Shown here: positions 1-21,592 of the stretch, in pieces
Layout: the number at the start of each line of letters is the position of its first letter
Numbering within the stretch: position 1 is the stretch's first letter
Assembly (NCBI GenBank): GCA_035534315.1
Contig: DATLSD010000006.1
Coordinates: 10,839-74,838, forward strand
Reading direction: 5' to 3'
Length of the DNA stretch: 64,000 bases
Origin: Elusimicrobiota bacterium
Lineage (GTDB): Bacteria; Elusimicrobiota; Elusimicrobia; UBA1565; UBA9628
Translations under genes and position numbers: made by a program
Notes under the pieces: model-generated
What the model saw: only the letters and a program-made list of their open reading frames with translations
The model's database searches: none
Told to the model about the DNA's origin: nothing

Positions 1-911
1 CCGTCCGCCGGGTTGAAAATCTCGTAAACGCCGGGCTTTACCGGAAGAAGCGCGACGGGCGCGCCGGAAAAATCCTGCTCCGGCGAAGCGCCGGGGCTGG
101 GTGCGGCGTCCGCCGATGGCGCCGGCTCCTGTGCCTTCGGACCGGCCAGGTTCGCGAGAATGGCGCCGCAGTCGCTTTTCCACCAGTCGCCCCGCAGGGC
201 CACGCGGCGCGAACGCACGCGCGAGGCTTGGCAGACGGCGTCCACGTAGAAGCGGGGCGAGGGATAGGAAGCGCCGCCTGCCGGGTGGACGAACTCGATG
301 CCCGCGGCTTCGCCCACGGCCAGCAGCGCGGAAAACAAGGCGTTGGCGTCATGGACCTGCGCGAGGCGGGCCTTGGGCTCGATGATGCTGGCCAAGCGGG
401 TCAAGGCAGCCCGATAGGCGCGATCATCCGCGGCTTGCCGGCGCTTCAAGCGCTCGACATCGTCCGCATCCCCCTGCTCGATGAGGCGGGCAAGCTTCTC
501 CATCAAGCCGTCTTGCAAGCTTCGCACGCTTTCCAGCGTGGCTTCTTTCTCCTCGACCTTGACGTCGGCCGAGCCCGCGGGCGAGAGCGCGTCCGCGACG
601 GTCTGCAGGTAGAGTCTAAAATCCTCGGCCGCGCCCGTGCTCTTGGCGAAATCCTGCGCCGATTCGCGCCGCACGGCCGCGCCCAAGCGCCCCACCGCGA
701 GCAGCGAGAATCCATTGTACGCGGGAGCGCCCGAGAAAATGCCGCCCTGGGAAGCGGTGAAAAGATGTCGCCGCGGCCCCGCAGGAGCGCCGTCCTTGGC
801 GCGCACGGCGAAGACGTCGACCTGCCCGGCCTCGACCTTGTAAATCCAGCCCGCGTCATCCAAAAGAACCGGATGGTTGCCGGAGAGTTGCATCAGCGCT
901 TCCGGACTCAT
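1..911 (-). CDS. Partial N-terminal portion of a second NHLP-system ABC-type transporter, with a cyclic-nucleotide-binding-like domain; runs off the window start
   Basis: Hand-translated minus frame from ATG near 909-911 with GAGGAG RBS, 8 nt after the stop of the C39 ABC gene. Open to position 1, which explains its absence from the ORF track. N-terminus (HPVLLDDAGWIYKVEAGQVDVFAV...) is paralogous to ORF 10805..11509. NHLP loci typically carry a second, cNMP-domain ABC protein. Confidence 0.4.
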   Translation of the reverse strand, partial: MSPEALMQLSGNHPVLLDDAGWIYKVEAGQVDVFAVRAKDGAPAGPRRHLFTASQGGIFSGAPAYNGFSLLAVGRLGAAVRRESAQDFAKSTGAAEDFRLYLQTVADALSPAGSADVKVEEKEATLESVRSLQDGLMEKLARLIEQGDADDVERLKRRQAADDRAYRAALTRLASIIEPKARLAQVHDANALFSALLAVGEAAGIEFVHPAGGASYPSPRFYVDAVCQASRVRSRRVALRGDWWKSDCGAILANLAGPKAQEPAPSADAAPSPGASPEQDFSGAPVALLPVKPGVYEIFNPAD

Positions 912-918
912 CGGCTCC

Positions 919-3126
919 TCACTGCACCCCGGCCAGCCGCGCGTAGGCGCCGCCTTGCGCCTTTAACTCGTCGTGGGTGCCGCGCTCGACCGTCTTGCCG
1001 TCCTCGAGCACGATAATCTCATCGGCGTCGCGCACCGTGCTCAGACGGTGAGCGATAATGATGCAGGTGCATCCCCGGCGGCGCAGATTGTCGTCGATGA
1101 TTTTTTCCGTCACGGTATCCAAGGCGCTGGTGGCCTCGTCCAGGACCAGCACGCGCGGGTTCAAGACCAAAGCCCGCGCGATTTCCAGGCGCTGGCGCTG
1201 GCCGCCGCTCAAATTGGCGCCGCCCTCCTCCAAAACCGCGTCATAGCCGCCCGCGCGCGCGACGATGTCGTTATGGATGCAGGCATCCCGGGCAGCGGCG
1301 ACAATTTGATCCTCGGGCACGGTGTCATCCCAAAGGGTCAGGTTGTCGCGCACCGTGCCGGCAAAAAGCGCGATGTCCTGGTCCACGAAGGCCACCGAGT
1401 TGGCTAAAAGCGCGCGCGGCAGTTTCTCCCGCGGCACGCCGTCGAAAAGGATGTCGCCGCTCCAAGGCGGGTAAAGACCCGTGAGTATTTTTGAAATGGT
1501 GGATTTGCCGCAGCCGCTGGGCCCGACCAGCGCCACGCGGCTGCCGGGCTTAAGCGATAGGCTGAAGTCCTCAATGAGCGGCTCGGAAAGCCGTGAATAG
1601 CCGAAGGTCAGGCCGCGCAAGTCAACTTGACCCGAAAGTTTGGCCTGCGGCGGTTCGGCCTCAGAGCCTGTGGGCTCCGCCTCCGCCGAAGCCGCAGGAT
1701 CGGCCGGATAGGCCATGACGTCGTCCAGGCGGTTCATGTCGCCCTCGAATTCTTGGAACGTGCCCATGAGGTTGACGGTGCGATTGACCGGATCGATGAA
1801 GCTCGCCATGAGGCTCTGGAACGCGACCAAAAGGCCCAGCGTCATGTGCCCGCGCATGACGCTCAAGCCTCCGAAAGCCAGCACCGCGGCCGTGGCCAGG
1901 GCCTGCAAGAGCGGCGGAATCTGCAGGAAAGGCTGGGTGACCTCGTTCAACTGGAGAGTGTAGCTCACCAGCTTGGCCTGATAGCCGGCCCAGGTGGAGA
2001 AAAAATCCGACTCCCCCCCGGTCGCCTTCAGGGTCTCGATGGCCTGCAGGCCGCCCATGGAAACGCCCATGAGCTTGCCCTGCTCGCGCACCAGGCGCCG
2101 GTTTCCATCGACGCGCTTTCTTTGGATAGCGCGCGCGGCGGCGTAGTTGGCGCCCAAGGCTCCGATGGCGATCAATGTCAAAAGCGGGTTGATGGCGAAC
2201 ATCAGGGCCGCATAGAAGACGACCATGACCAGGTCAACCGCGGCCCCGGCCATGTCGGAGGCCATGATGTGGGCCAGGCGCTTGTTGATGGCCACGCGGT
2301 TGGCGATGTCGCCGCAGAAGCGCTGCGCGTAGAAGTCCACGGGCAGGCGCAGCACGTGCCAGAGAAATTTTCCGGAGCCCGAGACCGAGAGCTTGGTCTC
2401 CAGGCGGTTCAAGTAGTATTTCTGCAGCCAGGTAAGCGCCCCGCGCATGACGGCGGTGATGAGCATTCCCAGCAAGAGGGGCTTGATCCAGTCCGTCATC
2501 TGGAGCACGAGGTAATCGTCCACGAAGATGCGGATGAAGGTGGGGATGACCAGGCCCGGCACGACCAGGGCCAGGCCGGCGATGATGATGTAGGAAAGCG
2601 CCTCCTTGGAGGATTCCATGCGCTGGCGCAAGCCCGGCCACATGGATGGTTTCACGCCGCCCTTCTTGAACTCAGGGCCCGGCTTGAAGGCCAGCGTCAC
2701 GCCGGTGAAGGACTCGTCGAATTCCTCGTCTGAAACCGCGCGCGGGCCGACCGCCGGATCGGCGAGATGGACTACGCCCTTGCCGAAGCCCTCGACCACC
2801 AAGAAGTGGTTGAAGTTCCAGAACACGATGACCGGCAGGGCCATCTGCCGCAGTTCCTGCGGTTCTTTGCGGTAGCCCGTCGCTTCAAGCCCGTAGGCGC
2901 GCGCCGCGCGAAGGACGTTGCGGGCGTTGCTGCCGTCGCGGGAGACGCCGCAGGCCTTGCGCAGTTCCTCCAAGGGAACGTAGCGCCCGTAATAACCCAG
3001 CACCATGGCCAGGGACGCCGCCCCGCACTCGACCGCCTCCATCTGCAGGACGGTCGGCACGCGGGCCCGGCTCGGCCGCCCGAAAATCCGCGCGACCGGC
3101 TCAAGCAGGGATTTAGGAAGAGGCAC
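919..3126 (-). CDS. Bacteriocin/NHLP-type ABC transporter with N-terminal C39 peptidase domain, permease and ATPase
   Basis: 735 aa. C39 Cys motif (ECGAASLAMVLGYYG) sits at the N-terminus, a TM region in the middle, and Walker A GPSGCGKST plus LSGGQRQRLEIARAL at the C-terminus. Confidence 0.9.
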   Translation of the reverse strand: MPLPKSLLEPVARIFGRPSRARVPTVLQMEAVECGAASLAMVLGYYGRYVPLEELRKACGVSRDGSNARNVLRAARAYGLEATGYRKEPQELRQMALPVIVFWNFNHFLVVEGFGKGVVHLADPAVGPRAVSDEEFDESFTGVTLAFKPGPEFKKGGVKPSMWPGLRQRMESSKEALSYIIIAGLALVVPGLVIPTFIRIFVDDYLVLQMTDWIKPLLLGMLITAVMRGALTWLQKYYLNRLETKLSVSGSGKFLWHVLRLPVDFYAQRFCGDIANRVAINKRLAHIMASDMAGAAVDLVMVVFYAALMFAINPLLTLIAIGALGANYAAARAIQRKRVDGNRRLVREQGKLMGVSMGGLQAIETLKATGGESDFFSTWAGYQAKLVSYTLQLNEVTQPFLQIPPLLQALATAAVLAFGGLSVMRGHMTLGLLVAFQSLMASFIDPVNRTVNLMGTFQEFEGDMNRLDDVMAYPADPAASAEAEPTGSEAEPPQAKLSGQVDLRGLTFGYSRLSEPLIEDFSLSLKPGSRVALVGPSGCGKSTISKILTGLYPPWSGDILFDGVPREKLPRALLANSVAFVDQDIALFAGTVRDNLTLWDDTVPEDQIVAAARDACIHNDIVARAGGYDAVLEEGGANLSGGQRQRLEIARALVLNPRVLVLDEATSALDTVTEKIIDDNLRRRGCTCIIIAHRLSTVRDADEIIVLEDGKTVERGTHDELKAQGGAYARLAGVQ

Positions 3127-3133
3127 GTTGGGA

Positions 3134-4210
3134 TCAGAGCCCGAGCAGCGACTTCATCGCCGGGATGACCAAGGTGATGGGCCGGCGCTTCTTGACGATA
3201 ATGCGCACGTCGCACATCATGCCGGCCTTGATCTTCAGTTGGGGCCCCTCCGAGGAAGACCAGCGGTAGCCGCTGAAGTTGTTGGAATCCTTGTCCAGCG
3301 ATATCCTTAAAATGTAGGGAGCGCCGCCCGAAGTGAGCTCCTGGTCTAGAATGTTGTTGCGCGTAAGCTCGAAAATCATCTGTTCGCGCGCGGGAAATTC
3401 GGAGACGTAGTAGACTTGGCCCGTGAGATAGCCGTACTCTTCCTTCTTAATGATGCGCGGCGAAACCTCGGCGGCCATCCCGGGCTTGGCCTGGTTGCCC
3501 ACGCTGGGGATGAACGCGATGGCGTTGAGACTTTGCCCCTCATCGACGTAGGTCATAAGGAAGGCGCCCTTCTGGATGAGCGTTCCGGGCGAGGTCATGA
3601 CCTCGACGATGCGCCCGCTCTTGGGGGCAATGACATCGGTGGCCTCTTTAAGCTCCATGCCGTTTAGGGCCAGCTGGTTTTGCAGGGACTTGAGGCTGGT
3701 TTGCGCCCGGGCCAAGTTCTGCTTCGCGGTCTCAAGCACGTCGGGCGCGATGAGGCCGTCCTTGAGCGCCACCTGCATCGCGCGCACCTGCCGGTCCAGG
3801 CTGCGGATATGCTCCTGGGTCGCCGCGATGCTTTGGTTTATTTCGCCCGCGGAGCGCGCGCCCTTTTGCGCCATGCTGCTTTGATCCAAAGTCGCCACGA
3901 CCTCGTCCTTGGTGACCAAGTCCCCCTCGGCGACGAAAATCTGCTTGACGATGCCGGTCCCGGGCGAGTAGATATTGTCGACGCCTCGCGGCGGCATGAT
4001 GATGGCCGGACCCGAGATGGTGGTGGGGATGCTTCCCAGCACGGACCAAATGAGCGCCAAAACGATGAGGGCGCACAGCGTCCACAAGGCGTACCAGCCC
4101 TTGGGCGTGGTCACCTGCATCAGGTAGTCGAGCTGCTCGGGCGTGGAGAGCCGCTCCAAGGAAGCCTTTCGGAATATCTCTTGCTCGGCCATGGGGTTGA
4201 ATCTTAACAC
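3134..4210 (-). CDS. HlyD-family secretion adaptor of the bacteriocin export system
   Basis: 358 aa with an N-terminal TM and a long coiled-coil; 8 nt upstream of the ABC exporter. Confidence 0.8.
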   Translation of the reverse strand: MLRFNPMAEQEIFRKASLERLSTPEQLDYLMQVTTPKGWYALWTLCALIVLALIWSVLGSIPTTISGPAIIMPPRGVDNIYSPGTGIVKQIFVAEGDLVTKDEVVATLDQSSMAQKGARSAGEINQSIAATQEHIRSLDRQVRAMQVALKDGLIAPDVLETAKQNLARAQTSLKSLQNQLALNGMELKEATDVIAPKSGRIVEVMTSPGTLIQKGAFLMTYVDEGQSLNAIAFIPSVGNQAKPGMAAEVSPRIIKKEEYGYLTGQVYYVSEFPAREQMIFELTRNNILDQELTSGGAPYILRISLDKDSNNFSGYRWSSSEGPQLKIKAGMMCDVRIIVKKRRPITLVIPAMKSLLGL

Positions 4211-4226
4211 TCAATACGATGGGTAT

Positions 4227-7200
4227 TCAAGCGAACGCCTCGACTTCCGGCAGATCGTCAAGCAGGAACCGCGCGGCCGCGTAGCCGACGCCCGCCTGGC
4301 CCTGGAAAAAGCCGGGATTGGGCGGCCCCCCGTCAAAACCCAGGCGCAGCGCCCCGCGCCGGGCCCGGGAAACAACGCGCGCAATTTTATGCCGTGCTTG
4401 CCGCGTCAAAGCCTCGTCGCTCAGCGCCCGCGCGGCGCGCGCGAGGAAGAGAGCGGCTCCCGCCTCGCCGCAGCAGAGATGATCCACGGCAGGTTCGTCC
4501 GCGTAGCGCTCCACGGCCGCGGCGGCCCAGCGCGCGGCCCGCGAAAAATCGAGCCCCAAAATCCGGCCCGTTTCCAGCAAGCCGAGGCCGACGCCCGCCG
4601 CGCCGCCGCACCAGCTCAAGACAAAGCGCGGCTTGTCCCCCTGCCCGAAATCGCGCCAGTCCGGCCAGTTGCCCGCCTCGGCGTCGTAGCTCGAGGCGCA
4701 GAGCTCGGCCAGATCGCGGGAAATCTCCGCCCAAGGCCCGCCGCGCTTGCTCATCCGCGCGCAGACATAGGCCGCGCCCGCCGCGCCGTGGGCGAAACCC
4801 AACTCCGGCCGTTGCGCCCGGCCCGAGGCGATATCGTTGAACAGGCTCCGGCTCGCGGCGAGAAATTCATTTCCGATCTCTTCACGCCGCCTATCCAACT
4901 CCCCGGCCAAATCGGTCGGCGGGGCGCCGGGCAGCGCGTCGAGCGCCAAAAGCGCGCCGGGAATTCCTCCCAGCAAATCCGTCCGGCGCGCATCCTCCGA
5001 AGACAGATATTTGGGCGAAAGCGCCGCGGCCAACTGGGCCGCTTCCGCGATGAGTGATTCTTCTCCCAGGATTCGTCCGATGGCCGAAAGACCGTAGGAC
5101 AAGGACGCCGCTCCCGTGCCGATGCCCAGGCCCATGCCGCGCGTCAGCCGCTCCATGCCGTAGCGGCGCGAGTCCCGCGCGACCAGGCGCGCCGTGGCCA
5201 ACGCGACGCCGCGGGTCCGGGGATTTTTCCCCAGCTTATGGGCCGCGGCCAGAAAAAGCGCGATGCCCAGCGCGCCGTCGAAAAGCCGGCCGCCGACCGG
5301 GCCGTACTGCCAGTTGCGGGAACGCTCGTCGTAGCACATGGAGAGCCACCACGCCTCATCGCCCGCGGTCGTCAAGGCGCTTTCAAGCAAGTCGTCGGCC
5401 AGATTGAGAACAAAATCCTGCATGACGTCCGGATTAAAATCCTCCGCCGCCCCGGCTTCACCGCCTGGGACAAGCTTCGCCGGCGCCGCTTTCGGCGTGA
5501 AAAAGCTCGCGCGCAAAAACCGGCTCTGCCGGGCCAAGTCCGCCTCGTCAAGAGCGGCCAGGCGCTTGCGGACCAAATCAAGCGGCGCCTCGTTCATCAC
5601 CAGAATCCGCCGCCCGCCGCAAGACGCGTAATCATGGCCTGGCGCGGTTTTAAACACCGGGACATCTCGGCAAGACAGCGCCCGGATTTCCTCGACCGCG
5701 CTCAAGCCCAGGCTTTGCCGCTCCTTCTCGTCTTCCACGCCCGAAAGCGCGCGCCAGAGCGGCTCGAACACGAAGCCTTGGGCCGCGCCATCCTTGAGCG
5801 CGGCGGGCTCCAGCGATTTTTGCAGCATGTGCGCGTAAACGCGGGTGTTGCGCAGGATAAAGCGCGTCGGCAGGTTCTCAAGGGACTCAAGCGCGGCGGA
5901 AACGGCTCGGCGGAACTCCGGGCGAAGAGCCTGGCGGTAGGCCGCGGCGAAGCCCGATTCGATGTCGTCGAGGAAATCAGCCGCGGCGACGGGCCGGCCG
6001 TTTAAAAGCGGCTTGTTGGCGCTCGACTCGATCCTCACTCGGACCTTCGCCACGCGCATGCGGTCACGGTTAGCGAACTCCCATCGCAGAGCCTCCCCAG
6101 ATTCCTCCGCGCTTCCCCCCGCTAAGCCGCTCGACTCCAAAATCCGGCCGCCTCCCAAAAACTCGTAGCGCGGCAGAAGCGCCGTGCGCACCACCGATTC
6201 AAAGAAGAAGCGGTGCTGGGCCAAATTGGCCGCGTCGAAGGCGCCCTCTCCCAGGCGCGGCCGCGGGCAGCAGAGAGTCTCCAAATCAATCGGATAAGGG
6301 CCGGCTGCCGTCGCGACGATGTTTTCGTGGTGCAAATCCGAGGCGCCCAGCAGGTACATATGAAAAAGCAGCTCGCCCCCGGACCTGAAGTATTTCCGCA
6401 CTTGAGCCTCTTCCGTAAAATCAGCCCGGCGGGCGAACGCGCAATAACCGTAGCCGCCGCGGTCGAGCACGCGCAGACGGCCCAAGCCGGAGACAAAGCC
6501 CGCCGCGTCAAGCCTGTCCAAGTAGGCGCAAAACCACGCTTCGGCCGCCAAGGGCTTGGGCTTATAAAGGAAGCGTCCGCCGCCGTCCAATTCCAGCAGG
6601 GCCACGGTCTTGCCGCCCTCGTGCGGATCCGAAACGCCGAATTCAGCGCGCGAGATGCGCCTAAACATGTCACTTGCCGCGAAAATCTTGGCCAGTTCCG
6701 GCCAATCCTCGGCGAGACGGGAGACGAACAGGGCCGCGTTCCTGCGCCAATTTTCGAGCAGGACGGCCATGACGCGAAGGAGCGCCGGATATTCTTCGAA
6801 GAACGCGCGGAAGTCCTCCGCGAGGAATCGATGGACGAACGCGCGGAAAGCCGCGTCAGAGTCGGGATCGAAGCCGGAGAGTTCCGCGCCTTCGAGGCCG
6901 CGGAAGACGGCGAACTCGGCCGCCAGGCAATAAGCCGAAGCCCCGCAAAGGTTCCTGAGCAGATCGCGCCCGATATCTCTCCAAGCTTGCGGCGCCAGCG
7001 GTGCCTCCGGAACAGCCGCAGCGCAAGCGCCCTTGAGGCGTGCGAGCTCGTGCTCGGTTAGCGCCGACCAGACAGGGCCAAAAGGAATGTCCGCGCCGGG
7101 CAGGGCGGCCGCGTCTTGTTCCGCGTCCCTTTGCGGCTTTTCCCGACCGCACGAGAGAAAGTCGATAATGTCGACCGCGGCGGGAACCCAGCTCTCATCC

Positions 7201-7391
7201 GCGGGAGAAAAATCGCGAAACGTCTTGCGAAGCTCCAAAAGGCCGGGCGCCAGCGGATCGATGGCCGCGCGCCAAGCCTCTTCGTCAGCGCCGCTCGAGC
7301 CGCCGACGGAGAGCCGCTCGGACAAGGAGCGCGCCTTGGGCACGAGCGCCTGGACGAAGACCTCCGGCGGGGCCGCGGACGCCGTGCTCAC
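4227..7391 (-). CDS. Class II lanthipeptide synthetase (LanM; dehydratase plus LanC-like cyclase)
   Basis: 1054 aa. N-domain carries YKPKP and DLHHEN motifs. C-domain carries GFAHGAAG, SWCGGAAG (WCxG) and HLCCGEAG, a CCG motif rather than CHG, as in ProcM. Confidence 0.85.
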   Translation of the reverse strand: MSTASAAPPEVFVQALVPKARSLSERLSVGGSSGADEEAWRAAIDPLAPGLLELRKTFRDFSPADESWVPAAVDIIDFLSCGREKPQRDAEQDAAALPGADIPFGPVWSALTEHELARLKGACAAAVPEAPLAPQAWRDIGRDLLRNLCGASAYCLAAEFAVFRGLEGAELSGFDPDSDAAFRAFVHRFLAEDFRAFFEEYPALLRVMAVLLENWRRNAALFVSRLAEDWPELAKIFAASDMFRRISRAEFGVSDPHEGGKTVALLELDGGGRFLYKPKPLAAEAWFCAYLDRLDAAGFVSGLGRLRVLDRGGYGYCAFARRADFTEEAQVRKYFRSGGELLFHMYLLGASDLHHENIVATAAGPYPIDLETLCCPRPRLGEGAFDAANLAQHRFFFESVVRTALLPRYEFLGGGRILESSGLAGGSAEESGEALRWEFANRDRMRVAKVRVRIESSANKPLLNGRPVAAADFLDDIESGFAAAYRQALRPEFRRAVSAALESLENLPTRFILRNTRVYAHMLQKSLEPAALKDGAAQGFVFEPLWRALSGVEDEKERQSLGLSAVEEIRALSCRDVPVFKTAPGHDYASCGGRRILVMNEAPLDLVRKRLAALDEADLARQSRFLRASFFTPKAAPAKLVPGGEAGAAEDFNPDVMQDFVLNLADDLLESALTTAGDEAWWLSMCYDERSRNWQYGPVGGRLFDGALGIALFLAAAHKLGKNPRTRGVALATARLVARDSRRYGMERLTRGMGLGIGTGAASLSYGLSAIGRILGEESLIAEAAQLAAALSPKYLSSEDARRTDLLGGIPGALLALDALPGAPPTDLAGELDRRREEIGNEFLAASRSLFNDIASGRAQRPELGFAHGAAGAAYVCARMSKRGGPWAEISRDLAELCASSYDAEAGNWPDWRDFGQGDKPRFVLSWCGGAAGVGLGLLETGRILGLDFSRAARWAAAAVERYADEPAVDHLCCGEAGAALFLARAARALSDEALTRQARHKIARVVSRARRGALRLGFDGGPPNPGFFQGQAGVGYAAARFLLDDLPEVEAFA

Positions 7392-8119
7392 GGCCCTTCC
7401 CGCCGCAGCCGCCAGGCCTCGGGATCGCGCGCGATAGCGTCCAAAAAGGCGAGATGGTTCGTGTGGTTGACGAAATTAAAGCTCAGGGTGACGGAGGGTT
7501 CTAGGCTCTGCGCCGAGTGCACGCGGCCGGCGGGGATCAAGAGCACGTCGCCGGGCTCGAGTTCCACGTCTTCGCTTGCGGCCAGGCCCTCCGCTCCGGC
7601 CAGACCGCGCAGGCTCACGCGCTTGCGGCCGACGAGCTGCGCCAGCCAGGCGTGCGTGGAGAACAAATCCGCGTGCGGCAGGGTTTCGGTGCCCGCCGGG
7701 CCGATGAAAAGCCAGCCGAATTTGCGCAGGTACCAGCTCTTCTGCGCGGGCGCGCGGAAGTCGAGCAGCGTGCGGCAGAACTCGGGAAACGCGAAGTCTT
7801 TAAGAAGCTCGGGATGATCCGCGAAGGGAGAATACTGCAGGGTGTACCACCGAGGCTCCTCAGCCGGGCCGGCTCCGCTTAAAATCCAATCGATGAATTC
7901 GGCCAAGCGCATCTTCTTGCCGCGCTTGGTCGCGCCGATTTTATCGCCCACGACCACCTCGTCTTGTCCCAACCTTTCGCGCAGAAACTTCCAGTTCCAG
8001 CGCTCGAACGCCCTCCAGCGCTTGGCGTAGCCCTTGAAGAGCGCCGGAATGCCCGGCGCGGAGAGCAGAGAGCGCTCGGCTTCCTCGGCGGAAATTTCCT
8101 CGCTGAATATCCGGATCAT
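7388..8119 (-). CDS. JmjC/cupin-like Fe(II)/2-oxoglutarate-type oxygenase, a candidate peptide hydroxylase
   Basis: 243 aa. HxD (LPHAD) followed by a distal His (RVHSAQ) in a cupin-sized protein; 4-nt overlap with the lanM start. Confidence 0.55.
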   Translation of the reverse strand: MIRIFSEEISAEEAERSLLSAPGIPALFKGYAKRWRAFERWNWKFLRERLGQDEVVVGDKIGATKRGKKMRLAEFIDWILSGAGPAEEPRWYTLQYSPFADHPELLKDFAFPEFCRTLLDFRAPAQKSWYLRKFGWLFIGPAGTETLPHADLFSTHAWLAQLVGRKRVSLRGLAGAEGLAASEDVELEPGDVLLIPAGRVHSAQSLEPSVTLSFNFVNHTNHLAFLDAIARDPEAWRLRREGP

Positions 8120-9018
8120 GACGGCGCGCCGGAAGCGAAAGCCGAGCGGCGGCGGATGTCCGCGCTAAAGCGCTCCTTCAAGATGCCTGAAAGCCTTTCC
8201 AGCAGCCGATCGCAGAGGTCGCGCGGGGTATAACCGGAAATCCGCGAGAGGCTCACGCCGATGAACCGGCAGTCCATCTCCGTGTCCTTAAGCCACGCGC
8301 CGAAGCGCTCCATCCGGGCGAAGGCTTCCTCATCGGTGGCGGTGCGGCCCTCGCCGCGCCCGTCCGAGCGGCCGAAGACCAGCAAATGCTTGTTCTCCGG
8401 CGTGACGGAAGGGCTTACGGGAGCGCCGGGCGAAATGCGCAGAAGATGATACGGATTGTTCTTAAAGCGCTCGTACTCTTCCGCAGTGACCTCAAGAGCG
8501 ACGGGATCTCGCTCCGGAGTCAGATTGCAGGAGAAATAGTCCAAGCAGATATCGAGCGCTACGGGGTATTGCGGCCGGATGTCTGAAAGGTTCTTCACCC
8601 GCGCGAAGCGCGCCTGGGCGGCGTCGGGCTTGCCCTGGAGATCGGGCGGCAGCGGCCCCCTGGCCCAGACCATGGCCCGGCGCTGGGCGTCGGTGGTGAA
8701 AATGCAGACCGAGCCGTCGTAAGGCAGGGTGGCCTCGTGCTCGCGGTGCCACCACACCTCGCTGAAAAACCCGTGAAGCACGGCGGGCCAGATAAAATTC
8801 GCGATGTTGAGTTCCTTCAGGATGAAGGCGCGGGTTTCTTCGAGACCGGCGCCCGGTTCCAGCATCGGGCCCTGCAGCGTCGGGAGATCCATGTCCGAGT
8901 GCTCGTCGATATGGACCAGCGAACTGCCGCGGGCGGGAAGAACGCCCTTGGCCGCGGCTTCCTTCCAAAAATAAAACGCCTCGTGGTGTTCCTCAAAAAC
9001 GACGCAGGGGACGGGCAT
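8116..9018 (-). CDS. Hypothetical tailoring protein, possibly UPF0489-like (arginase/deacetylase-related fold)
   Basis: 300 aa. The N-terminal PVPCVVFEEHHEAFYFW motif is reminiscent of the UPF0489 family, from memory only. Translationally coupled on both sides. Confidence 0.3.
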   Translation of the reverse strand: MPVPCVVFEEHHEAFYFWKEAAAKGVLPARGSSLVHIDEHSDMDLPTLQGPMLEPGAGLEETRAFILKELNIANFIWPAVLHGFFSEVWWHREHEATLPYDGSVCIFTTDAQRRAMVWARGPLPPDLQGKPDAAQARFARVKNLSDIRPQYPVALDICLDYFSCNLTPERDPVALEVTAEEYERFKNNPYHLLRISPGAPVSPSVTPENKHLLVFGRSDGRGEGRTATDEEAFARMERFGAWLKDTEMDCRFIGVSLSRISGYTPRDLCDRLLERLSGILKERFSADIRRRSAFASGAPS

Positions 9019-9953
9019 CAGCTCCGCGCGGAGGCCAGCGGAACTTCAAGCCCGCGCAAGGTCCAGGTCTTGTCCAGACAGGGCACCAGGTGCTTGTTTA
9101 ATGAGCGCAGCCACTCCGGATACTCCAAGGGGACGTCGAACTCCGCGCAGCTGGGCGCGCCTTCCTTCAGAAACATCTCGTAGTGCGCGTTCATGGCCGC
9201 GCGCAACAGCAGGACCGCGGCGGCGCGGTGGCGCGCGGCGAAGGCCGGATCGACCCAGAACTTGGTGTAGTAAAGAGTATCGGGCTTCTCAGCGAAGCGA
9301 TGGGTCGCGAACCAGCCCTTAGCCTCGCCCCCCGAGAACAGCATCTGGCTCGTCGACCAGTCGATTTCATTCTCACGAAAGCGCACGCTTAGATGCGCGG
9401 GCGCCCCGGCGCGCGAACCCCGCTCGATGGGGTCGAGCCCCTCGGCGCGGGCCTTGGTCCAGGAAATCACGCGCCAATCGGCGGCCGCGGACTCGCCGGC
9501 GCCCTTGGCCCAGCGCGGAATATTCGCGATGCGGCTCTGGCCGAAGAAAATGCGCGTAAAGGGCGTCCCGCAGCCGGCGCGAACGATGGTTTTTTCGACG
9601 GCCTCAAGCCCCGAAATGCGGCTGCCATAATTGACGGAGAGGCGCTCGAGTCCTGGCCGGCGCGAAAGCTCTTCTATTAGGCGGCGCAAAAGCGCGGCGC
9701 CAAGCCCTTGCCGCCGCCGCCCGGGCAGGACATAGACCGAGAGCAGCTCGGCCTTGCGCTCCGCGGGTTCGAGCCTCGCCAGCGCGAGCCCCTCCGGCTC
9801 CCCGCCCAATCCGAGCGCGGCCGCGGCCAGCCAAGAAAATTCCTTCCTTGCGACGCCCTGGGCGAAAGAAGGGTAGGTGAAACCGGCCCAAGGCGAAAAA
9901 TCCGTCCCGGGCCCCAAGGTGGAAAGCTGTCCGGAATTTAAAATGGCGGTCAT
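9018..9953 (-). CDS. GNAT-family N-acetyltransferase
   Basis: 311 aa with GNAT motif A (RRRQGLGAALLRRLIEE); 1-nt overlap with the next gene. Confidence 0.6.
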   Translation of the reverse strand: MTAILNSGQLSTLGPGTDFSPWAGFTYPSFAQGVARKEFSWLAAAALGLGGEPEGLALARLEPAERKAELLSVYVLPGRRRQGLGAALLRRLIEELSRRPGLERLSVNYGSRISGLEAVEKTIVRAGCGTPFTRIFFGQSRIANIPRWAKGAGESAAADWRVISWTKARAEGLDPIERGSRAGAPAHLSVRFRENEIDWSTSQMLFSGGEAKGWFATHRFAEKPDTLYYTKFWVDPAFAARHRAAAVLLLRAAMNAHYEMFLKEGAPSCAEFDVPLEYPEWLRSLNKHLVPCLDKTWTLRGLEVPLASARS

Positions 9954-10048
9954 AACGTGGCGTTGGATTTAAGAACCCTAAGCTTCGGGGCACGGGAGAA
10001 TGGCCCCGCGCCCCGAAGCGATGCCGTCGTGGATTTGGTCGGCCGAAA

Positions 10049-10366
10049 CTACATGCTCATCATGACGCAGGCCGAGGAGCCGCCGCAGGTCGCGCCGCAG
10101 CGTCCGCCGCCGGCGACTTTCTCGAGCTCGCTGTCGGAAAGCTCGCCGCCCGTCTTGACCAGATCGGGCACCACGACCACCAAGTCGGCGCCGTTGCGCG
10201 CCACGGCCTTGATGTTGAAGCCTTGAGGAAGGTCCTTGCCGGAGACCTCCTTGACCGCCTTGACCGGATCCTTGAGCGCCAGCTCGCGGAACTTCGCGTC
10301 CGTCGAAGCCTTGCGCGAAAATGCCTCCAAGGCCTTTTTCTGCTCGTCTTGTGTCCAGGGTTTCAT
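10049..10366 (-). CDS. NHLP-leader lanthipeptide precursor A (core GRCGATCGGSSACVMMSM)
   Basis: 105 aa. The leader matches the nitrile-hydratase-leader pattern (FRELALKDP...ELSDSELEKVAGG). The core has 3 Cys and several Ser/Thr, and an AGGAGA RBS is present. Confidence 0.85.
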   Translation of the reverse strand: MKPWTQDEQKKALEAFSRKASTDAKFRELALKDPVKAVKEVSGKDLPQGFNIKAVARNGADLVVVVPDLVKTGGELSDSELEKVAGGGRCGATCGGSSACVMMSM

Positions 10367-10431
10367 CGTTTTCTCCTTGAATAATCTAAACGGCTCTTCG
10401 TCTTCGTTTAATTGATGCGAGAGCGCGCCCT

Positions 10432-10794
10432 TTAGACGCAGGCGCCGCCCACGCCCGGCACGTACGTTGGTCCCGGAGGCACCGTGGACGAAACTAGGCA
10501 GACCTGGCTGATGCCGCAGCTTCCCGCGCAGCGGCCGCCCGCGACCTTCTCAAGCTCGCTGTCGGAAAGCTCGCCGCCCGTCTTGACCAGATCGGGAACC
10601 ACGAGCACCATGTCCACGCCGTCCCGCGCCACGGCAGCAAGCTTGAAGTCCGGCGGCAGCTCCTTGCCGGAGACTTCCTTGACCGCCTTGGCCGGGTCCT
10701 TAAGCGCCAGTTCCCGGAACTTCGCGTCCGTCGAGGCCTTGCGCGCGAACGCCTCCAAGGCCTTTTTCTTCTCGTCCTGAGTCCAAGGTTTCAT
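10432..10794 (-). CDS. NHLP-leader lanthipeptide precursor B (core RCAGSCGISQVCLVSSTVPPGPTYVPGVGGACV)
   Basis: An internal start (MKPWTQDEKKK) lies inside the 249-aa track ORF, giving 120 aa. The leader is about 90% identical to precursor A, and a GGAG RBS sits upstream of the ATG at 10794. Confidence 0.85.
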   Translation of the reverse strand: MKPWTQDEKKKALEAFARKASTDAKFRELALKDPAKAVKEVSGKELPPDFKLAAVARDGVDMVLVVPDLVKTGGELSDSELEKVAGGRCAGSCGISQVCLVSSTVPPGPTYVPGVGGACV

Positions 10795-10804
10795 TGATTT
10801 CTCC

Positions 10805-11509
10805 TTAATCCAAGCGCAGCTTAAAATTGTCCGGCAGGCTCCGGCCCAGCACCTCGGCGGCCGCCGCCCGCGGATTCGACATGAATTTCTCGCGAAAACC
10901 GGGTTGGGAGGCGGCGCGCTTGGCGACGGCGCGGCGGAGGCACGCCAGTTCAAACTCGCTTGGAAGCGGCGCGGCGGGGAATGCCTCCCCCTCGCCAAAT
11001 CGCGCGACGCGTTCGGCCAGAATTTCGCGCCAGAACTCGCGCGCGGACTGGAGATTATCGGCGAAACTTTGGGAAAAAGCCGGGGCCGGAATTTTTTCGG
11101 CGCCTTCGCCCAACAGCGAGTTGAAATGGGCAAGCCCTTCTCGAAGCCTTTTCGATTCCGCCGCGTCCGCCCGCCCGTCAAGCCTTCTCGCGTCGAAAGC
11201 GGCGCACCGGGCTTGGGCTCCGGGCGTGAAAATGGGAGTAAAGCGTCCGCGCGCGGCGGAAATTTCCATCAAGTCGAACAGGAATTCTCCGCTTGAAACG
11301 CGCAAAAGTCGGTGGCGCCGGATAAAGACGCCGCTGTCGGCGTCGCGGCGCGCTAAAAATAGGTCGAGCCGGCCCTCAAGAACCAGCCACGCCCGGCCTT
11401 CGGATCCGCACTGCACGTAGGGGACGCCGGCGGGAAGTTCCTGTCCGATGTCCTCGATTCTCGACGGCGTGGCCTCGGACGCTCCAATCATCGGAGGGGA
11501 TGTTATCAT
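10805..11509 (-). CDS. Hypothetical protein: cNMP-binding-like N-domain fused to a C-terminal NHLP-leader-like segment with no core
   Basis: 234 aa. The N-terminus (VQCGSEGRAWLVLEGRLDLFLA) resembles the N-terminus of the partial gene at 1..911. The C-terminus (FREKFMSNPRAAAAEVLGRSLPDNFKL) aligns with the precursor leaders. Confidence 0.5.
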   Translation of the reverse strand: MITSPPMIGASEATPSRIEDIGQELPAGVPYVQCGSEGRAWLVLEGRLDLFLARRDADSGVFIRRHRLLRVSSGEFLFDLMEISAARGRFTPIFTPGAQARCAAFDARRLDGRADAAESKRLREGLAHFNSLLGEGAEKIPAPAFSQSFADNLQSAREFWREILAERVARFGEGEAFPAAPLPSEFELACLRRAVAKRAASQPGFREKFMSNPRAAAAEVLGRSLPDNFKLRLD

Positions 11510-11525: not shown

Positions 11526-12554
11526 TTAGCGGCCGAAAAAGGCCCAGGCCGCGGCCGCGTTGCACAGCAAATAGGCCGCCGGATAAAGCGCGCGGGAGAA
11601 GGACCGGATGCGCGCCGCGGCTTTCGCGGAGCGACCGTCCGCGACGCGGTGAACGATGACGATTTCCACGATAGTAACGGCGGAAAAGACGAAGCCGATG
11701 AGGAAAAAAGCGTCGATATAGGTCAAGTACGGCAGGTGCGGCAGGCTGCCTGAAATCACGAAGAGAAAGGCGATCATGGTCAGGGCGGCGCTCAGGGCCA
11801 CGGAGAACTGGGCGGCCGTGTCGGTTTCCTTAATCCAAAGAGCGCAATAAGAAACGATGACCATGATAAAGAGCGGCAGAAAGACTTTCCAGATGTAGTA
11901 GCCGTAGCGCCGCTTGATGACCATGTTGAAGTCGATTTCCGGGATGCTGCCGCCCTTGCCGCCCAAGACTGACTCGGCCGGCACGGCCCGCATTCCCAAC
12001 ATTTTCCATTGCGCCAAGAGGGCCCAGGGCTGGCTGTTGATGCCGGTCTGTCCCGCATCAGGGACAAGCGCAACCGCATCCCGCTCATCCAAGAACGGTT
12101 GAAGCACCACGGGCAGGACCTGCTCGTCAAATGGAAAACGGTGGAAGGTCATCTGCATGGTCAGGTCGTCCTCGAAATCTTCCCAGAAAACAACCGTGCC
12201 GTCGGGATGCCGGCGGATGTTGGTTCCCAGCTTGAAGAGCCCGTTGACCGCGTTAGCCATGACGATGTTGGGCGTCCAAATTTTTTCCGGGTCGCACAGC
12301 CGGTCCGTGTCCTTGGCGCCGCGCGGCGCATACTTAAGACGGGAATCTTTCCATTGTTCGTAGAGATAGCCGCGGACGCGGAAGGTTTCCCCGACCTCGT
12401 CCACGCCGACCAAGTCGGTCACGTAGACGCCCACCTTGACCGGCACCCGCCCGTTTCTGCCCGGCGGCGGCGCGATAGAGGCGGCCGAGGAAGGCCGCAG
12501 GCTCAGGCCCAAGGATAAAATCAGGAACAACGCCGGGATTCTCGCGCGCCTCAT
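11526..12554 (-). CDS. Prokaryotic pentameric ligand-gated ion channel (Cys-loop receptor family homolog)
   Basis: A signal peptide from internal Met MRRARIPALF precedes the ligand-binding-domain pattern VKVGVYVTDLVGVDEVGETFRVRGYLYEQWKDSRLKY. There are four C-terminal TM helices. The track ORF (to 12806) carries an implausible N-extension. Confidence 0.7.
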   Translation of the reverse strand: MRRARIPALFLILSLGLSLRPSSAASIAPPPGRNGRVPVKVGVYVTDLVGVDEVGETFRVRGYLYEQWKDSRLKYAPRGAKDTDRLCDPEKIWTPNIVMANAVNGLFKLGTNIRRHPDGTVVFWEDFEDDLTMQMTFHRFPFDEQVLPVVLQPFLDERDAVALVPDAGQTGINSQPWALLAQWKMLGMRAVPAESVLGGKGGSIPEIDFNMVIKRRYGYYIWKVFLPLFIMVIVSYCALWIKETDTAAQFSVALSAALTMIAFLFVISGSLPHLPYLTYIDAFFLIGFVFSAVTIVEIVIVHRVADGRSAKAAARIRSFSRALYPAAYLLCNAAAAWAFFGR

Positions 12555-12776
12555 CAAGCGGAGATTATATCCTAAAAATGCTATCGTGATCGTGATGTTC
12601 GTCCTTTTGTTGCACCGGAGCCGCCCATGAAAAAGCAGTGCGTCGCGATGACGTCCGTCACCACCTACTCCGCCGCCCACCGGTGTCTCAAGGGCGCCGA
12701 CGCCCCCAAAAGCGGCCGTCGCCGGCTCTGCGCCCATCACCGCGCCCAAGCCGTCCGCGCCGGAAGCAGGTAAGTT

Positions 12777-13688
12777 TTGGCCAAACGGGAACTGCCCCGC
12801 TGGCAAGCCTTTCCGCTTGTCGCCCTGCTAAGCGCCCTTGGGCTCTTCGCTTCGGCCCTGCCGCGGCGCCTTGAAGTTTCCCTGGCCCGCACCCTGGGCC
12901 GGCTGGTGTTCCAGGCCCGGCTTTTCAAGCGCCGGGTGGTGGAATCCAACGTCAAGCGCTGCCTGCCGAAACTCAGCTTCGCCGAACGCCGCAGGCTCAT
13001 TCGGAACAACTACGAGCACTACGGGCTTCTCCTCTTCGAGTACATGCATTTTTTCTCCCCCTTCAAGGGCCACTGGCGTCGCTACGTTCCCACCGTCGCG
13101 CGCATGGAAGGCTTCGAACATTGGGAAAAGGCCCACGCGCGCGGCCGCGGCGTGATTTTCTTCTGCTCGCACCTGGGCTCCTGGGAAGCGGGAGCGGCCT
13201 CCATCGCCTTAAGCGGCGTCGAGGCCACCATCGTGACCACGGTCTTGACCCCGCGCTGGCTGCACGACAAGATCACGGCCTGCCGCGATTCGGTGGGCAT
13301 GAAGGCGGCTTATCACCCGGGCTCCATGCCCGCGGTGCTCAAAACCCTGCGCCGCGGCGGCTCGGTCGCCTTCATGAACGATCAGTACGCCGCGCCGCCC
13401 ATGGGCCTGCCGGCGGTTTTCTTCGGAACCAGCGTGGATACCTTAGCGGTCGTCGGGCCCCTGGCGCGACGGACCGGCGCGGCCGTGCTGCCGCTGCACA
13501 CCTTCCGCGCCGCCGACGGCATGACCACGGCCGTCATCGAGCCTGAATTAGAATTGGGCGACGCCTTGGACGACGCCTCGGCCGCGACCCAGCGCGTGGC
13601 CAGCCGTGTGGAATCCTGGGTGCGCGCCAACCCGGAACATTGGCTCTGGATGCACCGCCGGTTCAAGAACGTCGCGCCCGCGGCCTAA
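12777..13688 (+). CDS. Lipid A biosynthesis (LpxL/HtrB-like) lysophospholipid acyltransferase
   Basis: 303 aa with an N-terminal TM and the general LpxL-family layout. Confidence 0.65.
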   Translation: MAKRELPRWQAFPLVALLSALGLFASALPRRLEVSLARTLGRLVFQARLFKRRVVESNVKRCLPKLSFAERRRLIRNNYEHYGLLLFEYMHFFSPFKGHWRRYVPTVARMEGFEHWEKAHARGRGVIFFCSHLGSWEAGAASIALSGVEATIVTTVLTPRWLHDKITACRDSVGMKAAYHPGSMPAVLKTLRRGGSVAFMNDQYAAPPMGLPAVFFGTSVDTLAVVGPLARRTGAAVLPLHTFRAADGMTTAVIEPELELGDALDDASAATQRVASRVESWVRANPEHWLWMHRRFKNVAPAA

Positions 13689-13706: not shown

Positions 13707-14391
<685 letters not shown>

Positions 14392-14402
<11 letters not shown>

Positions 14403-17064
14403 CCGGCTCTCCCAGCGGCAGCGAAAATTTAAAAGAAGCGCCGCCTCCTTCGCGGCTCTCGGCCCAGATGCGCCCGCCGTGCGCGTTCAAGACCGCCCGG
14501 CAGATCGCCAGGCCCAAGCCGGCGCCCTTCGAGCCCTTGGCGTGATAGAATTTTTCAAAAACTTTTTCGAGGTCCTCGGGCGGGACGCCCGGCCCGCGGT
14601 CGGCCACCTCGACGATCAAGCGATCTTTTTCGGCCCGCGCGGTGACGGCGATGGGTGTTCCCTCGGGGGTGTGCCGCGCCGCGTTCTCCAGGAGGTTCAT
14701 GAAAACCTGCTCGATGAGCACGCCGTCCATCGGAACCAGCGGCAGGTCGGGAGGCACGCTGGTCGTTATCTCCCGGCGCGCGAGCATCGCCTCAAGGCGC
14801 CCCAGGGCCGAGCCGGCGATCTCCTCGATGGAGCCGGGCTCCTTGCGCAGCGCCACCGCGCCCGTTTCAAGGCGCGTGGTCTCGATGAGATTGGCGACCA
14901 AACGCGCCAGCCACTGGCCCTCCTCGATGACATTCTCCACGAGCTCGCGAGCCTTGTGCGTCAGCGGAGCGCCCGCATCCTGAAGCAGGCTCGTGGCCGA
15001 GCCGATGATGGCGGCTAAAGGCGTGCGCAAATCATGCGAAACTGACGAGAGCAGGGAACTGCGCAATCGCTCGGTCTCGGCGTCGATTTGCGACTGGCGC
15101 GCGCTTTCCTGGAGACGATCGACCTCGAGTGCCAGGCCGATTTGATGAGCGAAGGATTCCAGGAGCAGCATCTGATCGGGAATCAAAAGACGCTCCCGCG
15201 AGTGCGGCTGGACGCGGAGCACGCCCACGGGCCCCTCCGCGCCGGTCAAGGGCGCGTAGAGCGCGTTGACCACGGGCAGGGTCTGCGTGCCCAGTCCGGC
15301 CGACTGCCCCAGATCAAACACCCACTGCGCGACGCTGCGCTCCTTTTCATCGAGTTCCCGCTTGGCGCCCGAGGCGCTGCGGACTTCCAGAGCCCCCCGT
15401 TCCCCTTGCATGAGCGCGATGATGTCGCTGTCGAAAACCTCCGCGACATGGCGCGCCGCCACATCCAAAATAGCCTGCACGCCGCGCGTGCCGGCGAGCT
15501 CGCGGCTCAGGGAGTGCATCGCGGCCGTACGCATCTCTCCCAGGCGCGCCGACTCGGCCTGGGCTTGGATGCGCACGGTCAGCCCCGAGATGAAGAGCGC
15601 CACCGCCGCCATGACGACGAAGGTCACCAGGTAATCCCCGCTGCTCACGCTGAATGTAAAGCGCGGAGGCACGAAGAAGAAGTCGAAGCAGAGCACGGCC
15701 AGGATGGAGTAGAGCGCCGCGGGGCGGCGATGCCCGCGGGAAGCCACCAGCACGGCGCCGGCCAGGTAGAGCATGATGAGATCGGTCAGCGCCAAGTACG
15801 GGGAGACGAGAAAATCCAAGAGAGTGACCGCGGCCGCGGCGCCCGCCGCGACTACGTATTCCCACGGCGGCGTTTCCGGCTTCTTGGCCAATGCGGACGG
15901 AGCCGGTTCGGCGGCCGGGCCCTCTCCGCGGATGACGTAGACGTCGATGTCTCCGCTTTTCTGCACCAATTGATCGACGATGCTGCCGCGCAAGATCTCC
16001 TTCCAGCGCTGCCGCGCGCTCTTTCCTACCACGAGCTTGGTGACGTTGCGCTGCCGGGCCAAATCCAGCATGCCCTCGACCACGTCGCGTGTCGTCAGCG
16101 TGAGGGTCTGGGCGCCTAATTGTCCGGCCAAGCGCAGATTGTCGATGGCGCTGCTGCGCGCCGTCTCGGAGAGCCGCTGGGCCTGGGAATCAACGAAGAC
16201 GGCCAGCCACTCGGCGTGAAGGCCCGCGGCCATGCGCCGGGTTGCGCGGACGAGCTTCGCGGAACTGGGCCCGGGACCGACCGCGACCAGAAGCCGTTCG
16301 CGCGTGGGCCAGATGGCCTCGGGGGCTTGGCGGCGGCGGTAGGATTCCACCACAGCGGCCACGCCCTCGGCCGTGGCGCGCAGGGAGAGCTCGCGCAGCG
16401 CGGACAAATTGGACATCTTGAAGAAGCTCTGCACCGCGCGTTCGGCCATGTCGGGGACGTAGACCTTGCCCTCCTTCAAGCGATCCAAAAGCTCCTCGGG
16501 CGGCAAGTCGACCAGCTCGACGTCGGCGCGCTCCAAGACGGAGTCCGGCACGGTCTCGCGCACGATGACGCCCGTAATGCGCGCGACGATGTCGTTCAAG
16601 GTCTCCAAATGCTGGATGTTGAGAGTCGTGTAGACGTCGATGCCGCGATCCAGAAGCTCCAACACGTCTTGCCAGCGTTTGGAATGGCGGCTTCCCGGAG
16701 CGTTGGTATGCGCGAGTTCATCGACGAGAAGAAGCCCGGGCCTGCGCGCCAGGGCCGCGTCGATGTCGAAATCGTAGAGCTTGATGCCCCGGTGTTCGCC
16801 GACGCGGCGGGGTAGGACTTCCAGACCGTCGAGCAGTTCCCGGGTCTCGCGGCGGCCATGGGTCTCCGCCAGGCCCACGGCCACGTCCTCGCCATCGTTT
16901 TTCTTGATGCGCGCCGCCTGGAGCATGGCGTAGGTCTTGCCCACGCCGGGCGCGGCGCCGAGGAAAATCTTAAGCCTGCCGCCGACGCCGCGGGTCTCGT
17001 CCTGGCGCGCCTCGGGCAGGAAGGCTTCGGGTTCCGGGCGTTTTCGCTCTCTGGGCATTTTCAT
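14392..17064 (-). CDS. kdpD: Sensor histidine kinase KdpD
   Basis: 890 aa. An N-terminal KdpD/P-loop domain (GAAPGVGKTYAML) is followed by USP and TM regions, a GAF domain, the HisKA motif (SHDLRTPL) and an HATPase domain. Confidence 0.9.
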
Positions 17065-17114
17065 CTACTTAAATAACATGTTTGCGCCACCGACGCAATG
17101 AGACGGGGGCGAGA

Positions 17115-17732
17115 TCATCTTCCTCGGGCCCGGCGGGAAGATCGGATCATCCGCCGCAAGCTTTCGTTGAGCATCAGGACGTTGACCCGCGGTTCTCCGA
17201 AAATTCCCAGCGCGCGGCCTTGAACGCGCTTGAGAACGAGGGCGCGCACGGCCGCTTCGGAGATTCCATAGCGCCGGACGGCGGCCGCCACGCGCGGCAG
17301 CTGCCAGAGGGCCGCGGCCGGGCTGATGTCGGGATCAAGCCCGCTGCCCGAGGCGGTCACGAGCTCCGGCGGAATGGGCGCCGCGTTACCGGGCTCGGAG
17401 GCGCGCAGGGCGCCGACACGGGCTTGGACGCTTTGAAGCAGCGCGGGGTTGGTCGGACCGAGATTCGAGCCCGAGGAAGACGCCGCGTTGTAGGGAAACG
17501 GCGTCGTCGCCGAGGGGCGGCTCCAGAAGTACATGGGACTTGAGAACGACTGGCCGATAAGCTCCGAGCCCGCGACCTTGCCGTCTTGGACGATGAGGCT
17601 GCCGTTGGCCTGCCAAGGAAACAGGAACTGGGCCAGGCCGGTCACCAGAGCCGGATAAGCGAGTCCGGTCAGGATGGAGAAGGCCGCGAACATCAGCGCC
17701 GCCGGCCGGAGTTGGCTGAGAAGTGTTTTCAT
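17115..17732 (-). CDS. kdpC: Potassium-transporting ATPase subunit C
   Basis: 205 aa with a single N-terminal TM; sits between kdpB and kdpD. Confidence 0.9.
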   Translation of the reverse strand: MKTLLSQLRPAALMFAAFSILTGLAYPALVTGLAQFLFPWQANGSLIVQDGKVAGSELIGQSFSSPMYFWSRPSATTPFPYNAASSSGSNLGPTNPALLQSVQARVGALRASEPGNAAPIPPELVTASGSGLDPDISPAAALWQLPRVAAAVRRYGISEAAVRALVLKRVQGRALGIFGEPRVNVLMLNESLRRMIRSSRRARGR

Positions 17733-17744
17733 GTCGATTCCTCG

Positions 17745-19817
<2,073 letters not shown>

Positions 19818-19818
19818 T

Positions 19819-21585: not shown

Positions 21586-21592
21586 GGTATCC

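Follow-up and report, generated by a model that had tools for sequence, protein, structure and literature searches.

The stretch of DNA analysed here (the window, 64,000 nucleotides) lies on contig DATLSD010000006.1 of assembly GCA_035534315.1, an Elusimicrobiota metagenome-assembled genome. The target gene, 10805..11509, is the first gene of a co-directional minus-strand cluster that reaches window position 1, and it encodes a soluble two-domain protein in which a barrel is joined by a helical linker to a core-less domain resembling the NHLP leaders of lanthipeptide precursors. In the NCBI version the open reading frame (ORF) is 228 residues long, starts at Met7 and is labelled hypothetical protein. 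The gene and its predicted parts are as follows.

10805..11509, minus strand: target gene, 234 residues, ATG start, stop codon at 10805-10807 (ORF list and conserved homologues).
11171..11464, minus strand: CRP/cyclic nucleotide monophosphate (cNMP)-binding-type beta-barrel, residues ~16-113, predicted from AlphaFold2, Foldseek and homology to the transporter P0007.
10970..11170, minus strand: helix in the position of the CRP C-helix plus a variable helical linker, residues ~114-180 (AlphaFold2 secondary structure and alignment gaps).
10808..10969, minus strand: putative pseudo-leader (NHLP three-helix bundle plus beta-strand 1), residues ~181-234.

No signal peptide, lipobox or transmembrane segment was seen in the protein by eye, and it had no ABC_membrane or ABC_tran match in Pfam or NCBIfam and no C39-like domain. 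Long overlapping ORFs that cross the target gene and precursor A in other frames, at 10432..11181 (minus strand, an extended frame) and at 10827..11420 and 10904..11296 (plus strand, antisense), were rejected as typical high-GC artefacts; only the 234-residue frame is conserved as a protein in homologous loci. The target ORF is real, conserved and functional, and it is under purifying selection.

NHLP and Nif11 leaders are unusually large, folded and "protein-like". In an NHLP leader a three-helix bundle and a beta-hairpin are followed by a disordered tail that runs to the GG site. DprM, a class II lanthipeptide synthetase (LanM), uses both the helical nucleus and acidic tail residues as docking surfaces, and it is the three-helix nucleus that supplies the hydrophobic docking on which a class II LanM depends (PMC12537861). 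The tail of the target protein (residues ~184-232) matched the two adjacent precursors in BLASTP with E-values of 4e-7 (42% over 38 residues) and 3e-6. The leader_NHLP model TIGR03793 aligned residues 192-232 to its profile positions 6-45 of 77 (E 2.2e-4), a match that was below threshold (21 against the curated 50.9 bits), as were those of all homologues. A profile of the target family found the solved NHLP leader DprE2 (9cjx_A) at E 7e-7, and hhalign of the C-terminal domain family against NHLP leaders returned a probability of 98.9% and an E-value of 1.4e-17 over leader columns 4-66. The similarity of the tail to NHLP leaders is far above chance, and the "core-less NHLP leader-like tail" proposed in an earlier, sequence-only reading of this DNA was borne out by the profile alignment.

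In the AlphaFold2 model the leader-like domain forms helices at residues 185-201, 203-211 and 213-221, and the chain stops in beta-strand 1, its C-terminus ...PDNFKLRLD aligning to leader column ~53. In the sequence alignment, neither the target nor its homologues had a disordered acidic ELSDSELEKVAGG-type tail, a Gly-Gly site or a core. Nothing follows the leader-like domain in the window protein, in L008 or in P0003, while other members end after beta-strand 2, and the full beta-hairpin is kept in the more distant members P0004, P0020 and P0005. Glu187 and Arg223, the counterparts of the Glu8-Lys44 salt bridge of DprE2, are invariant in the family, as are Leu191, Phe205 and Pro213 (counterparts of the DprE2 core residues Val12, Phe26 and Pro34) and Ala217 (counterpart of Val38). 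Because the tail, the GG site and the core are all missing in every member, the C-terminal domain is, on sequence grounds, a pseudo-leader and not a precursor. Compared with true NHLP leaders (TIGR03793; DprE2, 9CJX; MprE, 8TB1), it has the same three-helix nucleus in sequence and predicted fold, keeps the hydrophobic-core positions and the Glu-Lys/Arg pair, and is likewise encoded beside a LanM and an NHLP exporter. It differs in lying at the C-terminus of a 234-residue protein, whereas true leaders stand at the N-terminus of a peptide of ~100 residues, and in being truncated after beta-strand 1 in the window clade, with no acidic tail, Gly-Gly or core. Separately, precursors carrying two tandem NHLP leader domains before a single GG/core were observed (P0010, P0012-P0015 and P0018), the first copy being effectively core-less, which shows that the NHLP nucleus serves as a repeatable module elsewhere.

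The fold of the N-terminal domain was examined with an AlphaFold2 model built from five family sequences, which reached a predicted local distance difference test score (pLDDT) of 85.3 and a predicted template modelling score (pTM) of 0.81, four of the five models being confident; an earlier model from two sequences (pLDDT 61.7) was set aside. The barrel strands span residues 39-106 at a pLDDT of ~90. Behind them, a helix at residues 116-134 occupies the position of the CRP C-helix, and a variable helical linker (helix 149-170) comes next; alignment gaps show that most of this linker is deleted in P0005. As a prediction, the model thus has the eight-stranded barrel and C-helix expected of cNMP-binding domains. 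Foldseek against the PDB gave 85 matches at E ≤ 1e-3 (best E ~3e-5, probability 1.0), and the top 50 were all CRP/CAP, Vfr, CLP, mycobacterial CRP or PKA regulatory subunit. The root-mean-square deviation (rmsd) of these alignments was 5-7 Å for the barrel alone and 13-16 Å at full length, with a template modelling (TM) score of ~0.3.

At the sequence level, Pfam gave no match at E ≤ 1 for the window ORF and none at E ≤ 10 for four fused homologues, PF00027 and HTH_Crp_2 included. No barrel alignment was obtained with hhalign against Escherichia coli CRP, with a query sequence that may be approximate, a PDB sequence search with the target barrel found no match, and nothing in NCBIfam, PADLOC or PHROGs matched the N-terminal domain. 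By eye, family members differ at the position of the Arg that cNMP binders typically carry in the phosphate-binding cassette. The barrel carries the family motif QELPxGxPxVQCGxxGRxW, and Cys34 (nucleotides ~11408-11410) and Cys102 (~11204-11206) are invariant in all fused members, the P0007 barrel having Ala and Tyr in their place. The N-terminal ~115 residues are predicted to be cNMP-binding-like at the fold level only, so that this label of the sequence-only reading stood for the modelled structure and did not extend to sequence models.

The same reading had called the barrel a paralog of the N-terminus of the partial gene at 1..911, which encodes the start of the exporter subunit ABC2. Direct comparison of the target barrel with this N-terminus was weak, with a BLASTP E-value of 0.14 and hhalign E-values of 0.012 and 0.0036 (probability 9%). 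An exhaustive HMMER search over 1.84 billion representative proteins found P0007 (983 residues) at E 7.5e-15, its residues 19-134 corresponding to the barrel and first helix, and the family profile run directly against P0007 scored 86 bits over P0007 residues 21-130. P0007 is a bona fide TIGR03797 ABC2 (768.9 bits against a cut-off of 709.4), and its alignment to the window ABC2 is weak but collinear, in three segments. These profile comparisons leave no ambiguity about the homology of the target barrel to the N-terminal domain of the TIGR03797 transporter P0007. The barrel, together with the helix after it, falls into one small clade with this cytoplasmic domain of an NHLP-type ABC2. Because the direct comparisons were weak, paralogy to the window ABC2 was right in kind and is shown only by way of P0007. 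Strong-looking HMMER matches to P0006 (3038 residues) and P0008 (1447 residues) were discarded as repeat artefacts, in which many matches of ~2 bits had been summed. The barrel and the next helix are common to the target and P0007, which occur in the same cluster type and pathway context, but the target is stand-alone and soluble and lacks the C39-like domain, the membrane domain and the ATPase, so that only the accessory N-terminal domain is held in common.

The distribution of the two domains connects them to each other and to the exporter. The fused form was found in six loci, namely the window, L008, L001/L004, a JGI contig (P0004), L003 (P0020) and L002 (P0005), with identities of the homologues to the target of 78%, 57%, 45% and 44-48%. 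The L008 homologue (78%) has the same synteny, and at L001/L004 (57%) synteny is complete, including both ABC1 and ABC2. The family is tiny: word-indexed protein searches returned close relatives only, a barrel-only alignment query added none, a scan of genome contigs gave only the contig already known, and a metagenome scan contributed a single further locus, L008. In all six loci the gene directly 3' of the fused one encodes an NHLP lanthipeptide precursor of the same type. In L007 the order is the 3' end of ABC1, ABC2 (P0007, with the barrel), P0009, three precursors, GNAT, arginase and LanM. P0009 is a stand-alone, core-less NHLP-like protein of 75 residues that is 52% identical to the target C-terminal domain; its GTG start overlaps the ABC2 stop (GTGA), a GGAGG Shine-Dalgarno sequence precedes it, and it is translationally coupled. 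An intact copy of its gene (L007, 3176-3403; L005/L006, 358-585) is present on each of three independent metagenome contigs, the copies differing by 2 amino acids; the short contigs L005/L006 run only from the 3' end of ABC2, across this small gene, to the first precursor. One lineage has the two domains joined in a single protein, and another has them apart, with the barrel on the exporter. Such a combination of fused and split forms (a Rosetta stone) suggests that the two domains act together and with the exporter.

The gene 5' of the fused form varies and is a prokaryotic homologue of the pentameric ligand-gated ion channels (pLGIC), a nucleotidyl-transferase or an ORF that looks, by eye, DNA-glycosylase-like. 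The pLGIC homologue (Neur_chan_LBD plus Neur_chan_memb; window 11526-12806, minus strand; L001 8935-9963; L008 3985-5013) stands upstream of the target gene, at a distance of 16-37 bp, in three Elusimicrobia-type loci and is not in this place in L002 or L003. The window ORF for it is long and TTG-started, and probably begins later, since its homologues have 342 residues. A promoter and terminator scan gave nothing usable.

Selection was estimated from the ratio of nonsynonymous to synonymous substitution rates (dN/dS). Between the window and L008, dN/dS was 0.27 for the target (barrel 0.15, linker 0.38, C-terminal domain 0.25) and 0.11-0.18 for neighbouring genes. Between the window and L001, where dS was ~1.1 and near saturation, it was 0.32 for the target (barrel 0.20, linker 0.39, C-terminal domain 0.35) and 0.07-0.26 for neighbours, and amino acid identity was 57% for the target and 73-94% for neighbouring genes. 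The family alignment has more than 50 invariant columns, and these are concentrated in the two folded domains. The linker is the fastest-evolving segment, and the ORF is present and intact in every related locus. The protein consists of two constrained domains and a free linker, and its gene is the least constrained of the cluster.

Downstream of the target, the cluster contains the following genes.

10432..10794, minus strand: precursor A, 120 residues, with an NHLP leader, GG and core RCAGSCGISQVCLVSSTVPPGPTYVPGVGGACV (TIGR03793, E 8e-11).
10049..10366, minus strand: precursor B, 105 residues, with an NHLP leader, GG and core (G)RCGATCGGSSACVMMSM (TIGR03793, E 8.5e-12).
9018..9953, minus strand: GNAT-family protein, PhaN-like candidate fatty-acyl transferase (Pfam Acetyltransf_1, E 1.3e-11; by analogy with PMC8784127).
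8116..9018, minus strand: peptide arginase-like protein (FlmR/OhkR, UPF0489; NF052474, E 2.3e-52; PF12640, E 1e-16).
7388..8119, minus strand: Cupin_8/JmjC-type hydroxylase, PhaI-like (Pfam).
4227..7391, minus strand: class II lanthipeptide synthetase LanM (TIGR03897, 568 bits).
3134..4210, minus strand: NHLP-system HlyD-type adaptor (TIGR03794).
919..3126, minus strand: ABC1, with C39 peptidase, permease and ATPase (TIGR03796, 1097.6 bits).
1..911, minus strand: start of ABC2 (TIGR03797 type), cut by the window end, with its N-terminal domain at residues ~9-112 (nucleotides ~576-887).

Both precursors have an Arg-Cys core after the GG. The target stop and the ATG of precursor A are separated by 10 nucleotides, a gap that holds the GGAG Shine-Dalgarno sequence of precursor A. 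The arginase-like protein, with 178 bits, stayed below its NCBIfam cut-off of 350 bits. Hubrich et al. described the selidamide cluster pha (phaeornamide), which comprises an NHLP precursor, the GNAT PhaN, the arginase PhaR, the hydroxylase PhaI and the LanM PhaM (PMC8784127). The gene set of the window cluster at 1-11509, which also has a three-gene NHLP exporter, equals that of pha, and the cluster is, by analogy, a phaeornamide-type selidamide (lipolanthipeptide) biosynthetic gene cluster in an Elusimicrobiota genome. Elsewhere in the window, a complete Kdp potassium-uptake locus was read from translations only at 13707-21727 (KdpE-like response regulator, KdpD-like sensor kinase, KdpC, KdpB, KdpA and a small KdpF-like ORF). 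The segment 25348-30930, with a GC content of ~0.70 and strong negative AT skew, encodes by eye a 970-residue DUF2309/DabA-like protein followed by NuoL/DabB-like polytopic membrane proteins, and its composition reads as an effect of coding, not as the mark of a foreign element.

We tentatively favour an interpretation in which the target works as a receptor/pseudo-leader module, gating or scaffolding the docking of leaders at the LanM and exporter machinery. The protein would be a non-catalytic accessory of a phaeornamide/selidamide-type lipolanthipeptide pathway, built from the pathway's own recognition parts, with the barrel and the pseudo-leader forming a receptor/pseudo-substrate pair within the maturation and export complex. 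The pseudo-leader would sit in recognition sites for the folded NHLP nucleus, namely the docking helix of LanM, the barrel domain of the exporter or both. It would be suited to this because it cannot be cleaved or exported and keeps only the surface of the nucleus. Such occupancy may gate true precursors or organise their access and would thereby couple export and cleavage to completed tailoring. The barrel may provide docking to, or dimerisation with, ABC2 and possibly sense a small ligand, by analogy with HetC, a peptidase-containing ABC transporter of Nostoc whose N-terminal cNMP-type domain binds ppGpp and is required in vivo (PMC10986499). In HetC, as here, a CRP-like barrel is tied to a double-glycine peptide exporter, which makes it a plausible model for ligand control, but sequence models detect the HetC domain, which is built covalently into its transporter, whereas the target has no detectable ligand-binding signature. 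We infer every binding event in this scheme, as well as the competition with true leaders and any ligand.

Several observations are consistent with this interpretation. The target keeps the part of the leader used in LanM docking and lacks the tail used by the peptidase and other enzymes, a YcaO of another system also recognises the folded leader nucleus, and the pTM of the AlphaFold2 model points to a defined two-domain assembly. The homologies of both domains, the fused and split forms, the constant position directly 5' of the precursors and the dN/dS values given above fit it as well. Other observations weigh against it. Beta-strand 2, which gives one residue to the hydrophobic nucleus in DprE2, is lost or degraded in the window, L008 and L001, and the conserved leader Trp4 is replaced; with both changes, docking to LanM may not be preserved. 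By identity between the window and L001 the target evolves fastest of the genes in the cluster, the statistics for homology to the ABC2 barrel of the window itself are weak, and the structural model depends on five sequences. Ligand sensing is speculative since, by eye, the cassette Arg is not conserved. The sequence-only reading had listed a leader-recognition or decoy module and a regulatory protein among its options, and of its proposals this one best fits the domains found fused in six loci and split in L007. A more specific form, in which the target is a natural trans-acting pseudo-leader switch (possibly ligand-gated) of maturation and export and the CRP-like N-terminal domain of ABC2 is the receptor for the folded leader nucleus, seems to us rather doubtful.

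Stand-alone RiPP recognition elements (RREs; RiPP, ribosomally synthesized peptide with post-translational modifications) of the PqqD-like type offer a useful comparison. Like the target, they are small non-catalytic accessories of RiPP clusters that are expected to act in leader recognition, but the fold is unrelated, and an RRE binds the leader whereas the target contains a copy of it. The PqqD/RRE family was absent from the Pfam and NCBIfam results for the target and its homologues, and the Foldseek matches were of CRP type.

Supplying a leader in trans, or fusing one to the enzyme, can activate lanthipeptide synthetases. The target could have a positive role as a trans-acting leader or assembly scaffold, in which the pseudo-leader would dock on LanM (perhaps also on the GNAT protein, the arginase or the hydroxylase) and either activate these enzymes allosterically or tether them through the barrel to ABC2, giving a membrane-associated complex for maturation and export. 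We regard this as possible but on balance unlikely. It draws on the same anatomy as the gating interpretation (barrel homology, fold, split locus and leader homology), and the folded nucleus is needed by LanMs that act on NHLP precursors (PMC12537861). Every precursor already has a full leader, however, so the need for a trans-activator is not obvious, and the missing beta-strand 2 and the Trp4 replacement apply equally here. On present data a positive trans-leader or scaffold role and the gating model cannot be distinguished.

The CRP-like fold raises a different option, that the target is a divergent, pathway-specific transcription factor of the CRP/FNR type, in which the barrel would sense a ligand, the C-helix would dimerise and the three-helix C-terminal domain would bind DNA, its likeness to NHLP leaders reflecting domain recruitment. 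CRP regulators are the top Foldseek matches, some with alignments of ~200 columns, the length (~230 residues) and the order of barrel, helix and small helical domain fit CRP, and the target is the first gene of the cluster. This option is nevertheless improbable. The Pfam and hhalign searches found no sequence-level counterpart of cNMP_binding, HTH_Crp_2 or CRP, and the full-length superpositions were poor. The C-terminal domain is significantly homologous to NHLP leaders and is an NHLP fold, not a helix-turn-helix, and in L007 the barrel sits in a membrane transporter while the C-terminal domain is a separate small protein, which is hard to fit to a one-chain DNA-binding regulator. No common operator-like palindrome was found upstream of the homologues, although this is a weak test.

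It is also quite improbable that the gene is a by-product of evolution that now does little or nothing, formed when an internal deletion in an ancestral series of ABC2, small NHLP gene and precursors fused the ABC2 N-terminal domain to the downstream core-less NHLP gene. In L007 the genes are ordered such that a deletion of this kind would be geometrically simple, conservation of the linker is poor, and the target evolves faster than its neighbours. The ORF is intact, however, in six loci at 44-78% identity, dN/dS is well below 1 in both domains, and the invariant columns lie mostly in the two folded domains. The same values disfavour a decaying relic, as the "remnant of shuffling" of the earlier reading would be; a deletion-fusion may still have been the origin of the gene, with no loss of function implied. 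A self-immunity protein, as that reading had also suggested, or a true precursor extended in an unusual way at its N-terminus is very improbable. The sole support is the location in a bacteriocin-type cluster; the protein has, by eye, no signal peptide, lipobox or transmembrane segment, is unlike LanI or LanFEG, and cannot serve LanM as a substrate, as it lacks both a GG site and a Cys/Ser/Thr-rich core.

Both folds are known. In Pfam, NCBIfam, PADLOC and PHROGs, and in the literature searched for core-less or decoy NHLP leaders or their fusion to an exporter-type barrel, we found no description of a core-less NHLP protein or of such a fusion, in agreement with the earlier impression that the architecture had not been described. 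Recognition of NHLP/Nif11 leaders has been addressed only recently, for LanM, YcaO and a brominase (2024-2025 papers). Together, the fused protein and its split version give a concrete predicted physical interaction between two small soluble proteins. This matters for how a two-subunit exporter recognises leaders and for the role of the additional domain at the N-terminus of ABC2, the subunit without a peptidase. If the pseudo-leader competes with true leaders for the tailoring enzymes, or activates those enzymes, it would be the first natural case of leader mimicry as a control element in a RiPP pathway and, if so, a useful part for engineering lipolanthipeptide (selidamide) pathways.

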